DNA of 64,000 nt from Escherichia coli. Its GTDB lineage: Bacteria > Pseudomonadota > Gammaproteobacteria > Enterobacterales > Enterobacteriaceae. A program made the position numbers and the translations under genes. Below, piece by piece: positions 42,456 to 45,311 of the stretch (position 1 is the stretch's first letter; the number at the start of each line of letters is the position of its first letter). The notes under the pieces were generated by a model. It made no database searches. It was not told the DNA's origin and was given only the letters and a program-made list of their open reading frames with translations. The DNA is taken from the NCBI RefSeq assembly GCF_024502345.1, contig NZ_JALDNN010000001.1. One strand, written 5' to 3'.

Positions 42456-42712
42456 TTCATTCTCCTGGCTTGTCGCCAATAAAATTCACCTTGCGAGTTT
42501 GTTAGTATTCTAACATCTACTCCGCAACACACTTCGATACACATCACAATTAAGGAAATCTACTTACAAGTTTGCATCACTGTAATGCGATCTGGTTCAA
42601 ATAATTCACTTTCAAATGAATGCGTCAGTGGTGGCAAACGCATCAGGATCAAAGTGAACATCACGAAACTTCTTACAATGGCGCATCACCTTCGGCATAA
42701 AAGGAAAAGAAG

Positions 42713-44263
42713 ATGCCCACTTCTCATGAAAATGCACTGCAACAACGTTGCCAGCAAATTGTCACCAGCCCAGTGCTTAGCCCGGAGCAGAAGCGCCATT
42801 TTCTGGCACTGGAAGCAGAAAACAATCTGCCTTACCCACAGCTTCCTGCCGAAGCCCGCCGCGCGCTGGATGAAGGTGTAATCTGCGATATGTTTGAAGG
42901 TCATGCGCCGTACAAACCGCGCTATGTCTTACCCGATTACGCCCGTTTTCTGGCGAACGGTTCCGAATGGCTGGAGCTGGAAGGCGCGAAAGATCTTGAT
43001 GACGCACTCTCTCTGCTGACCATTCTTTACCACCACGTACCGTCGGTCACATCGATGCCGGTCTACCTGGGGCAACTGGATGCGTTGTTGCAACCGTATG
43101 TTAGAATTCTAACACAAGACGAGATCGATCTTCGAATAAAACGTTTCTGGCGTTACCTCGACAGAACCCTGCCAGACGCCTTTATGCACGCCAATATCGG
43201 CCCGTCTGATTCGCCTATTACCCGCGCGATCTTACGTGCAGACGCAGAGTTGAAGCAGGTTTCACCGAACCTGACCTTTATCTACGATCCTGAAATCACC
43301 CCTGATGACCTGCTGCTGGAAGTGGCGAAGAACATCTGTGAATGTAGCAAACCGCACATCGCCAACGGTCCGGTGCATGATAAAATTTTCACAAAAGGGG
43401 GCTACGGGATTGTGAGCTGTTACAACTCACTGCCGCTGGCTGGTGGTGGCAGCACGCTGGTACGCCTTAACCTGAAAGCCATTGCCGAGCGCAGCGAATC
43501 GCTGGATGACTTCTTTACGCGCACTCTACCGCACTACTGCCAGCAGCAGATCGCCATCATCGATGCGCGGTGTGAATTCCTCTATCAACAATCACACTTC
43601 TTTGAGAATAGCTTCCTGGTGAAAGAAGGGCTGATTAACCCTGAACGTTTTGTGCCAATGTTTGGCATGTATGGGCTGGCGGAAGCGGTTAACTTGCTGT
43701 GTGAGAAAGAAGGGATTGCCGCGCGCTACGGTAAAGAAGCCGCCGCAAATGAAGTGGGTTATCGCATCAGCGCGCAACTGGCGGAGTTTGTCGCCAATAC
43801 CCCCGTGAAATATGGCTGGCAAAAACGCGCCATGTTACACGCACAGTCGGGGATCAGTTCCGATATCGGCACCACGCCGGGCGCGCGTTTGCCGTATGGC
43901 GATGAGCCAGATCCGATCACCCATCTGCAAACTGTCGCCCCGCATCATGCTTATTATTATTCCGGCATCAGCGACATTCTGACGCTCGACGAAACCATCA
44001 AACGTAACCCGCAGGCACTGGTACAGCTTTGCCTCGGTGCCTTTAAAGCCGGAATGCGTGAATTTACTGCCAATGTCAGCGGTAACGATCTGGTTCGCGT
44101 TACCGGTTATATGGTGCGTTTGTCGGATTTAGAAAAATATCGCGCCGAAGGTTCACGCACCAACACCACCTGGCTGGGCGAAGAAGCCGCACGCAACACT
44201 CGTATTCTGGAACGCCAGCCGCGCGTGATAAGCCATGAACAGCAGATGCGCTTTAGTCAGTAA
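42713..44263 (+). CDS. yjjI: YjjI, glycine-radical-enzyme-like protein (DUF3029)
   Basis: 516-aa ORF; position and length match K-12 yjjI. Confidence 0.88.
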
Positions 44264-45098
44264 GATTATCCCCTTCTCCTGCGTTGACGGGCCAGGCAGT
44301 CGTCTGGCTCTGTTTTTGCAGGGCTGCAATCTGCGCTGCAAAAACTGTCACAATCCGTGGACGATGGGACGCTGCAATGATTGCGGAGAGTGCGTGCCAC
44401 AGTGTCCGCATCAGGCGTTGCAGATTGTTGACGGCAAAGTGCTGTGGAACGCTGTGGTCTGCGAGCAATGTGATACCTGCCTGAAGAGGTGTCCGCAACA
44501 TGCCACGCCAATGGCGCAATCCATGAGCGTGGATGAGGTGCTTAGCCATATCCGCAAAGCGGTGCTGTTTATTGAAGGGATAACGGTAAGCGGCGGCGAA
44601 GCCACGACCCAACTGTCGTTTGTAGTGGCGCTATTTACAGCCATCAAAAACGATCCGCAACTGCGCCACCTCACCTGCCTCGTGGACAGTAACGGTATGT
44701 TGAGCGAAACCGGCTGGGAAAAATTACTCCCGGTGTGCGACGGCGCGATGCTCGATCTCAAAGCGTGGGGGAGCGAATGTCATCAGCAATTAACCGGACG
44801 CGATAATCAGCAGATTAAGCGCAGCATCTGTTTGCTGGCAGAGCGCGGTAAGCTGGCGGAACTGCGTTTGCTGGTAATTCCAGACCAGGTGGATTATTTG
44901 CATCACATCGATGAGCTGGCGACGTTTATCAAGAGACTTGGCGATGTTCCGGTTCGCCTGAATGTGTTTCATGCCCACGGCGTGTATGGCGAGGCGCAAA
45001 GCTGGGCGAGCGCCACGCCGGAAGACGTTGAGCCGTTGGCTGATGCGTTAAAGGTGCGCGGGGTGAGCCGGTTGATATTTCCGGCGCTCTATTTGTGA
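44235..45098 (+). CDS. yjjW: YjjW, radical-SAM glycyl-radical activating enzyme
   Basis: 287-aa; CxxxCxxC cluster (CNLRCKNC) plus additional Cys motifs; overlaps the yjjI end. Confidence 0.88.
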
Positions 45099-45100
45099 CA

Positions 45101-45285
45101 TGCCGGATACGGCCTACGGTTCGGCACAAACCTGTAGGCATGATAAGACGCGTCAAGCGTCGCATCAGGCATTGTGCGCCAACTGCCGGATGCGGCGTGA
45201 ACGCCTTATCCGGCCTACGGTTCGGCACAAACCTGTAGGCATGATAAGACGCGACAAGCGTCGCATCAGGCATTATGCGCCGACT
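45101..45285. repeat. Tandem duplication of a REP/BIME unit (period about 101 bp)
   Basis: cctacggttcggcacaaacctgtaggcatgataagacgcg[t/a]caagcgtcgcatcaggcatt[g/a]tgcgcc occurs at about 45113 and 45214. Confidence 0.85.
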
Positions 45286-45311
45286 GCCGGATGCTGCCTA
45301 CGAAGGGCAAA

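Follow-up and report, generated by a model that had tools for sequence, protein, structure and literature searches.

Glycyl radical enzymes with characterised mechanisms are compared here in three classes. These are the class III ribonucleotide reductases (RNRs) of the NrdD type, the pyruvate formate-lyases (PFLs) PflB and TdcE with the activase PflA, and the Cys-x-Glu eliminases and dehydratases. The last class was represented by PflD and YbiW of Escherichia coli, the glycerol and propanediol dehydratases, CutC, HypD, and IslA. To our knowledge, every predicted glycyl radical enzyme of E. coli K-12 except YjjI now has a substrate assigned to it. The DNA analysed here, hereafter the window, is a stretch of 64,000 nucleotides from E. 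coli (assembly GCF_024502345.1, contig NZ_JALDNN010000001.1) that carries yjjI and its partner gene yjjW. Together, YjjI and YjjW almost certainly constitute a glycyl radical enzyme and its activase, and the pair probably works in nucleoside utilization. YjjI clearly belongs to the glycyl radical superfamily, is nearest to NrdD, and has none of the auxiliary residues that define NrdD-type reductases, PFL-type lyases, or Cys-x-Glu eliminases. None of the three classes shares its catalytic loop, and its chemistry may therefore be new. Neither the gene pair nor its family is new, and both carry annotations already. What is added here is the nucleoside context across lineages, NrdD as the nearest fold, the mismatch with the three catalytic-loop signatures, and the deo operators inside yjjI.

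YjjI matches Pfam PF11230 (E 3.8e-220; 731.8 bits, cut-off 23) and, over its full length, NCBIfam TIGR04040 (“YjjI family glycine radical enzyme”; 786.8 bits, cut-off 498.3). YjjW matches TIGR04041 (“YjjW family glycine radical enzyme activase”; 393.4 bits, cut-off 250.2) as well as the Radical_SAM and 4Fe-4S dicluster families (Fer4_12, Fer4_9, and Fer4_7). The RefSeq boundaries of both genes are identical to those of the open reading frames (ORFs) in the window. Their overlap (Table 1) is consistent with translational coupling and a single operon, and an overlap of 23–26 nt is kept at other Enterobacterales loci. The deoC-deoA-deoB-deoD genes lie immediately upstream (left) on the opposite strand, and yjjV-yjjU lie to the right. 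An earlier note on this DNA, made from the sequence alone, had described a 516-residue YjjI-family protein, an overlapping radical S-adenosylmethionine (SAM) activase with CxxxCxxC and ferredoxin-like Cys motifs, an operon adjoining the deo genes, and a substrate still unknown. The family scores, the overlap, the YjjW translation, and the divergent deoCABD genes bear out this description. As to the substrate, both family models are typed “hypoth_equivalog” by NCBIfam, and a single-sequence search found no PDB chain significantly matching YjjI. The full-text literature held no biochemical assignment for yjjI or yjjW; most subscription journals lay outside this search, and a very recent assignment is possible. 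PDB entries for PflD and YbiW date from 2024, and a 2025 preprint listing the glycyl radical enzymes of E. coli does not mention YjjI.

The radical residues of YjjI are clear from alignments of 25 diverse sequences (A1) and of 47 sequences. Cys236 is the single invariant cysteine across these 25–47 diverse members and is the predicted thiyl-radical residue. Arg462 and Gly465 of the C-terminal R-V-T-G-Y motif are invariant in A1, and Asn238 is at least 90% conserved there. The remaining invariant or near-invariant positions are Asp123 and a set of residues that are candidates for lining the active site, namely Arg70, His159, Asn186, Lys213, Asn218, Arg251, Glu305, His376, Gln378, Asp384, and Arg392. 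An AlphaFold (AF2) model built on the 47-sequence alignment has a mean predicted local distance difference test score of 91.3. In this model, Cys236 and Gly465 each stand at the tip of a beta hairpin, that of Cys236 being formed by strands 231–234 and 238–241. The catalytic Cys of YjjI thus sits on a finger loop within a ten-stranded alpha/beta barrel. Fold comparison of the model gave scores of 31.5, 28.7, and 27.9 for class III RNRs (9d3x, 4u3e, and 8p23), 28.1 for PflD, 23–27 for other glycyl radical enzymes, and 15–23 for class I and II RNRs. By the modelled structure, NrdD is the nearest fold to YjjI.

Profile comparisons place the catalytic loop more precisely. The best PDB match of the YjjI family profile is YbiW (E 6e-4), and NrdD and PFL are also matched. 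Cys236 aligns with Cys419 of PFL and with the catalytic Cys of YbiW, Ser235 with Cys418 of PFL, and Asn238 with the Glu of the G-C-I-E loop of YbiW. The RVTGY motif of YjjI aligns with RITGY in NrdD and RVSGY in PFL. An hhalign comparison of YjjI with the NrdD of one related locus (NrdD segment HLHDLGLLAPYCCGW; E 5.6e-4, probability 30%) sets “APYKPRY” of YjjI opposite “APYCCGW” of NrdD. By this pairing, Lys68-Pro69 stand at the bottom-face reducing Cys of NrdD. In the same weak alignment, the Met two residues before the thiyl Cys of NrdD corresponds to Val or Ala in YjjI, and the Cys preceding the thiyl Cys corresponds to Ser. The loss of the NrdD reducing residues from YjjI that these pairings point to is suggestive rather than firm. 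Two very divergent sequences from GC-rich, likely actinobacterial sources (P0238 and P0161) keep Cys236 and the RVTGY glycine. In these, G-C-G-R or G-C-V-A stands in place of S-C-Y-N, and several of the polar residues that are invariant elsewhere are lost. They may represent a sister family with different chemistry.

YjjW carries a V-D-G-P-G-S-R sequence with an N-terminal DGPG motif, the radical-SAM cysteines, and a ferredoxin-like insert predicted to bind two auxiliary [4Fe-4S] clusters. The nearest named NCBIfam models are those of the hydroxyproline dehydratase activase and its relatives. An activase adjoins YjjI in 36 of the 43 lineages surveyed below. At loci of several distant lineages (L082–L084, L094, L141, and L163), the partner is short (238–250 residues), PflA-like, and without the two-cluster insert. 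Not all activases of the family therefore have the auxiliary clusters predicted for E. coli YjjW. A sub-lineage about 56% identical to P0141 (L100, L101, L102, and L110) has no activase ORF adjoining YjjI. In L100–L102, a conserved opposite-strand gene follows YjjI instead, and the contig of L110 stops just past YjjI. The activase of this sub-lineage is either encoded elsewhere or was overlooked in ORF calling.

The genomic context of YjjI was surveyed well beyond E. coli. A genome search with a 13-sequence alignment recovered only relatives at least 63% identical, and more distant lineages were taken from encoding contigs and a metagenome scan. The distant sets comprise 15 loci for distant representatives and 80 metagenomic loci with 42–59% identity to a distant member. 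ORFs were called at 176 loci, YjjI was grouped into 43 lineages at 70% identity and 18 deep lineages at 60%, and 1882 neighbouring ORFs from 175 loci were clustered without prior labels. Among the 43 lineages, the recurrent clusters were the activase (37), a double ATP-binding cassette ATPase (14), a Bmp/PnrA-like binding protein (10), BPD_transp_2 permeases (8), PNP_UDP_1 phosphorylases (6), IU_nuc_hydro nucleoside hydrolases (6), LacI regulators (5), and PfkB kinases (5). A nucleoside-type gene, meaning a Bmp/PnrA transporter, a phosphorylase or hydrolase, or a ribokinase-like kinase, lies within six genes of YjjI in 17 of 43 lineages. The proportion is 14 of 27 among lineages with at least six flanking genes and 10 of 18 among the deep lineages, and the nucleoside-type neighbour is encoded on the YjjI strand in 14 lineages. 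Per gene, nucleoside genes make up 19% of neighbours at offsets 1–4, against 5% from offset 8 outwards (Fisher p = 0.009). The phosphorylase neighbours include true DeoD and Udp by NCBIfam.

Several arrangements illustrate this linkage, and the yjjI-yjjW pair often sits within a transporter operon. The gene order is Udp-Bmp-YjjI-YjjW-ATPase-permease-permease-DeoC-Add-DeoB-PNP in L173 and Bmp-YjjI-YjjW-ATPase-permeases-pseudouridine-kinase-like-YeiN in L113. YjjI-YjjW-Bmp-ATPase-permeases is found in L125, L138, and L159, and YjjI-YjjW-NupC-DeoD in L107 and L099. L092 has nucleoside hydrolase-ADP-ribosylglycohydrolase-PfkB-PNP, followed after a gap by YjjI-YjjW-MFS-Bmp. In Gilliamella, one strand carries deoB-deoD-nupG-add-5'-nucleotidase (ushA-like)-cdd-pyrimidine nucleoside phosphorylase (pdp)-yjjI-yjjW. 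The earlier note had taken the proximity to nucleoside catabolism as a hint at the substrate. This hint is supported by the independent gene arrangements in distant lineages, where nucleoside linkage is now seen as a recurrent pattern. The hint needs qualifying as regards the deo adjacency itself. The deoCABD genes are divergent from yjjI in Escherichia, Salmonella, Citrobacter, Enterobacter, Kosakonia, Kluyvera, Hafnia, and Edwardsiella, and deo is not next to yjjI in Proteus, Providencia, Aliivibrio, Photobacterium, and one betaproteobacterium. Because it is one inherited arrangement within Enterobacterales, deo adjacency alone is weak evidence.

Other features of these neighbourhoods were recorded in passing. 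A NupC-family transporter gene lies between yjjW and yjjV in Kluyvera, Trabulsiella, Pluralibacter, Pseudocitrobacter, and Edwardsiella (loci L037, L040, L043, L044, L046, L053–L055, and L063; about 12380–13660 in L043). In those genera, yjjI-yjjW has nucleoside genes on either side. Upstream of YjjI, at a distance of a few genes, two distant lineages carry RNR genes, namely NrdD and NrdG in L163 (114–2733) and a class II RNR in L125 (6591–9017). When 16 distant loci (280 kb) and the window were scanned with Rfam, no YjjI had a riboswitch upstream, and the only matches were to an unrelated FMN riboswitch (L163 17037–17161), one tRNA, and the REP-derived naRNA4. LacI-family neighbours were considered as CytR- or RbsR-like evidence and dropped, since the one in Aliivibrio is IdnR/GntR-like and the others are not assignable.

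These observations can be combined into a proposed mechanism. YjjW, as a radical-SAM activase in which a SAM cluster is joined by two auxiliary [4Fe-4S] clusters, would abstract hydrogen from Gly465 of YjjI. The resulting glycyl radical would generate a thiyl radical on Cys236. YjjI would be a stripped-down relative of the class III RNRs that has retained the ten-stranded radical barrel without the ATP cone, without the zinc ribbon, and apparently without the reducing cysteine and methionine. It would act in anaerobic, FNR-induced nucleoside utilization on an imported nucleoside or its ribosyl or pentose-phosphate product. The conserved Arg, Lys, His, Asn, and Gln residues would fit a polyhydroxylated, possibly phosphorylated ligand. 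The reaction would proceed without net reduction and would most likely resemble the first half of the RNR reaction. A hydrogen atom beside a hydroxyl (3'-H) would be abstracted, and elimination of a hydroxyl (2'-OH) or of the base would follow, giving a keto-deoxy sugar and possibly base release. The absence of net reduction is a speculative deduction from the lack of a second redox-active residue in YjjI. Taken as a whole, a radical enzyme acting without net reduction on a nucleoside-derived substrate is the best explanation, and we give it an even chance of being right. Within it, the substrate class is indicated by gene context, and the exact reaction is speculative; the specific chemistry is doubtful as it stands. 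A bolder reading, in which YjjI is a catabolic RNR offshoot acting on imported ribonucleosides or ribose phosphates, seems unlikely. It would perform either 2'-dehydration, with a 3'-keto-2'-deoxy product and base release, or formate-driven 2'-deoxygenation, with expression tied to deo through a DeoR loop.

A number of points weigh against a nucleoside-derived substrate, which is unproven and is suggested here from comparative sequence data. No nucleoside gene is nearby in 26 of the 43 lineages, many of which are short contigs, and L082, L086, L130, L144, L155, and L167 have long flanks with no nucleoside genes. The PfkB and nucleoside-hydrolase neighbours (Rih-like, ribokinase-like, and pseudouridine-kinase-like) score below the NCBIfam equivalog cut-offs. 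For the Bmp-family neighbours, the nearest NCBIfam model is a weak “putative B6” match, and Bmp-family binding proteins are not exclusively nucleoside-specific. Known enzymes of E. coli break down ribo- and deoxyribonucleosides anaerobically, and no missing step needs a radical enzyme. The argument that YjjI is not a reductase draws on the weak hhalign alignment and on the lack of a second conserved Cys, and the conserved Tyr67, Tyr71, and Tyr237 could be alternative hydrogen-atom donors. The list of active-site residues likewise derives from conservation and secondary structure only.

Two alternatives survive about equally well, both of them distinctly improbable. In the first, YjjI is a catabolic reductase that carries out NrdD-like 2'-deoxygenation of a ribonucleoside or ribose phosphate with formate or another donor. 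The deoxyribosyl product would pass through DeoA or DeoD, DeoB, and DeoC, and the pentose would be split to glyceraldehyde-3-phosphate and acetaldehyde. This proposal accords with the NrdD-like fold and with the abundance of formate when FNR is active and yjjI is expressed. It also accords with the position of deoC, which immediately adjoins yjjI in Enterobacteriaceae and is co-operonic with deoB in the distant L173, and with the RNR genes beside the cluster in L163 (NrdD-NrdG) and L125 (class II). However, the bottom-face Cys and the Met that NrdD requires for reduction appear replaced in YjjI, no second Cys is conserved, and DeoC is near YjjI in only 2 of 43 lineages. In the second alternative, the substrate is a nucleobase, a modified or C-nucleoside, or another Bmp-imported small molecule, cleaved by base-directed or other radical chemistry. 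Accessory genes that would fit include the pseudouridine kinase-like gene and YeiN in L113, ADP-ribosylglycohydrolase-family proteins (L088, L092, and L159), M20 amidohydrolases (L141 and L163), an Amidohydro_1 protein (L125), and an AlkD-like protein (L141). The minimal clusters of L138 and L163 contain only a transporter and YjjI-YjjW, and the imported compound itself could therefore be the substrate. No such accessory gene occurs in more than two or three lineages. What the neighbourhoods have in common is generic nucleoside uptake and cleavage of glycosidic bonds.

A third possibility, less probable again, is that the nucleoside link is not functional in E. coli and that YjjI serves anaerobic respiration or nitrogen metabolism. 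A co-expression bicluster groups yjjI with nar genes (narG) and FNR/NarL-like motifs, and its authors guessed “nitrogen metabolism” (PMC3228777). A transcriptome of growth on dihydroxyacetone also placed it with respiratory genes (PMC6643234), and the deo adjacency, as a single inherited arrangement, is missing in Proteus, Providencia, and Vibrionaceae. Shared FNR control alone explains such co-expression, however, and consensus scanning found no NarL heptamer upstream of yjjI. No nitrogen-metabolism gene recurs among the neighbours in the 43 lineages. It is very improbable that yjjI-yjjW no longer functions in E. coli and persists only as a cryptic or decaying remnant, as the absence of a reported phenotype and a few truncated database variants (P0011, P0077, and P0111) might suggest, given that the pair is nearly universal in the species, has low dN/dS values (ratios of nonsynonymous to synonymous substitution rates; 0.02–0.09), and is FNR-bound and anaerobically induced at yjjI. 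A role of YjjI on a nucleoside-derived substrate remains the preferred reading.

The control sequences of deo are intertwined with yjjI. The window contains the DeoR operators O2, at deoP2, and O1, inside yjjI, and only 0.18 palindrome matches would be expected in the whole window. O1 spans the yjjI codons for Y-V-R-I-L-T, including rare AGA and CTA codons that are imposed by the operator. It occurs at the same codon position, with 0–2 mismatches, in every genus in which deo is adjacent and is absent in every genus in which it is not. A third operator, OE, is a weak candidate by sequence match. Spacings of 599 bp between O1 and O2 and of 279 bp upstream for OE are those of the classical deo literature. 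The distal deo promoter (P1) is presumably associated with O1 and would then also lie inside yjjI. With O1 inside yjjI and O2 at deoP2, the yjjI promoter therefore falls within the O1-O2 DeoR loop, facing P1. Either DeoR looping or antisense transcription from P1 could in principle act on yjjI.

Evidence for anaerobic control of yjjI comes from several studies. An FNR chromatin immunoprecipitation (ChIP) peak and FNR-dependent anaerobic activation have been reported (PMC3688515), and an HU regulon study lists yjjI as FNR-activated (PMC2634741). In Yersinia intermedia, anaerobic induction was 4.3-fold (PMC3792023). CRP ChIP-seq peaks lie in the yjjI/deoC spacer and within yjjI (PMC4287617). The sequence CGTACCGTCGGTCACA in yjjI is identical to the CRP ChIP-seq site within yjjI of enterotoxigenic E. 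coli H10407 (PMC4287617) and is located some 50 bp from O1, downstream of it in the direction of deo transcription. Upstream of yjjI, scans with FNR, NarL, and NsrR consensus sequences found no convincing full FNR palindrome, only a half-site suitably spaced from the TACAAT -10 box. The FNR and promoter assignments in Table 1 are therefore putative. Stronger “FNR-like” matches there proved to be the CRP sites of deoP2, and a generic promoter and terminator scan gave nothing above shuffled expectation.

Table 1. Features of the yjjI-yjjW locus (positions refer to the window).
Feature	Position	Strand	Basis or remark
Divergent deoC-yjjI control region	42456-42712	not assigned	sequence scan
DeoR operator O2 at deoP2	42500-42515		16-bp palindrome, one mismatch
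CRP-like sites of deoP2	42533-42548, 42586-42601		consensus scan
Weak FNR-like site	42639-42652		perfect ATCAA half; centred ~41 bp upstream of inferred yjjI start
Candidate yjjI -10 box TACAAT	42674-42679		inferred promoter
yjjI	42713-44263	+	ATG start, 516 aa, AGGA Shine-Dalgarno 5'; YjjI-family glycyl radical enzyme
CRP site within yjjI	43036-43051		match to ChIP-seq site (see text)
DeoR operator O1, TGTTAGAATTCTAACA	43099-43114		perfect; inside yjjI, codons 129-134; exactly 599 bp from O2
Candidate third DeoR operator OE, TGATAAAATTTTCACA	43378-43393		4 mismatches; inside yjjI; 279 bp beyond O1, 878 bp from O2
Cys236 codon (S-C-Y-N finger loop), predicted thiyl-radical residue	43418-43420	+	sole invariant cysteine in alignments
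Glycyl radical motif R462-V-T-G465-Y codons	44096-44110	+	R462 and G465 invariant
yjjI/yjjW overlap, 29 nt	44235-44263	+	ORF coordinates
yjjW	44235-45098	+	ATG start, 287 aa; radical-SAM glycyl-radical activase
YjjW C31-x3-C35-x2-C38, radical-SAM [4Fe-4S] motif	44325-44348	+	translation; Radical_SAM and Fer4_12 matches
YjjW ferredoxin-like insert, two CxxCxxCxxxCP motifs (C47-C57, C76-C86)	44373-44492	+	translation; Fer4_9 and Fer4_7 matches
Repetitive extragenic palindrome/bacterial interspersed mosaic element (REP/BIME) array	45110-45294		101-bp unit, 1.8 copies, 96% identical; directly 3' of yjjW stop; Rfam naRNA4 (REP-derived) 76.6 bits, above gathering score

The locus is well maintained. 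The chromosomal yjjI-yjjW stretch is present in 5422 of 5426 complete E. coli genomes at a coverage of at least 80%. Against E. albertii, Salmonella, and Citrobacter, dN/dS is 0.02–0.04 for yjjI and 0.08–0.09 for yjjW. Both are real, maintained genes under strong purifying selection, well beyond what chance would give. The YjjI family is small: grouping at 50% identity gives 543 clusters within a set of 1.84 billion representatives. Its carriers include gut Enterobacteriaceae and the bee-gut Gilliamella, and many uncultured carriers appear to be Firmicutes, to judge from SpoIID and similar neighbours. The REP/BIME array is outside the enzyme system and marks the 3' boundary of the yjjI-yjjW operon. 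It accounts for about 37 extra BLAST places per E. coli genome and for a 101-bp length polymorphism among strains (2800 and 2901 bp). The RefSeq annotation of E. coli 1919D3 places a helix-turn-helix pseudogene, interrupted by an internal stop, between lplA and deoD (L001 3330–3593).

The comparative evidence narrows the candidate substrates of YjjI from any anaerobic metabolite to nucleosides and their pentose and base products. An old orphan enzyme thereby becomes directly testable, as nucleosides and their products can be screened with activated YjjI, and the DeoR loop around the yjjI promoter is a simple handle for probing a functional link to deo. If the substrate is a nucleoside or pentose phosphate, YjjI would open a new anaerobic branch of nucleoside catabolism and would exemplify RNR machinery turned to catabolic use. 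Should the catabolic RNR offshoot described above prove true, a previously unknown radical route of anaerobic pentose and nucleoside breakdown would connect to DeoC.

Among the described systems, YjjI shares most with NrdD. The likenesses are the C-terminal R-[VI]-T-G-Y glycyl motif, the thiyl Cys at the tip of the finger loop, a relic motif H/C-D-L/M-x3-A-P-Y, weak precomputed PF13597 matches in some YjjI relatives, and linkage with genes of nucleoside and nucleotide metabolism. Unlike NrdD, which has 600–710 residues and is 13–17% identical to it, the 516-residue YjjI has no ATP cone and no C-terminal Zn-ribbon cysteines. The YjjI of the window has no PF13597 match and no Cys cluster ahead of the Gly motif. 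The bottom-face Cys of NrdD and the Met before its thiyl Cys are apparently replaced, and YjjW is of the long ferredoxin-containing activase type rather than NrdG-like.

YjjI differs from PflB and TdcE in several respects. With Ser235 at the position of PFL Cys418, YjjI has no Cys-Cys pair. It is also about 240 residues shorter, and PF02901 is matched faintly or weakly, in some YjjI relatives only. The Cys-x-Glu eliminases resemble YjjI in having a single catalytic Cys and an activase with two ferredoxin-type clusters. In contrast, their general-base Glu at Cys+2 is Asn238 in YjjI (S-C-Y-N instead of G-C-x-E), and YjjI is about 250–300 residues shorter.

The control region resembles the deo regulon architecture, with DeoR looping between O1, O2, and OE and with CytR and CRP acting at deoP2. 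The O2-O1 distance of 599 bp, the candidate OE 279 bp further on, the CRP sites, and the CRP ChIP peaks are all present. A rarely stressed aspect of this architecture is that O1 and the candidate OE lie within the reading frame of yjjI.

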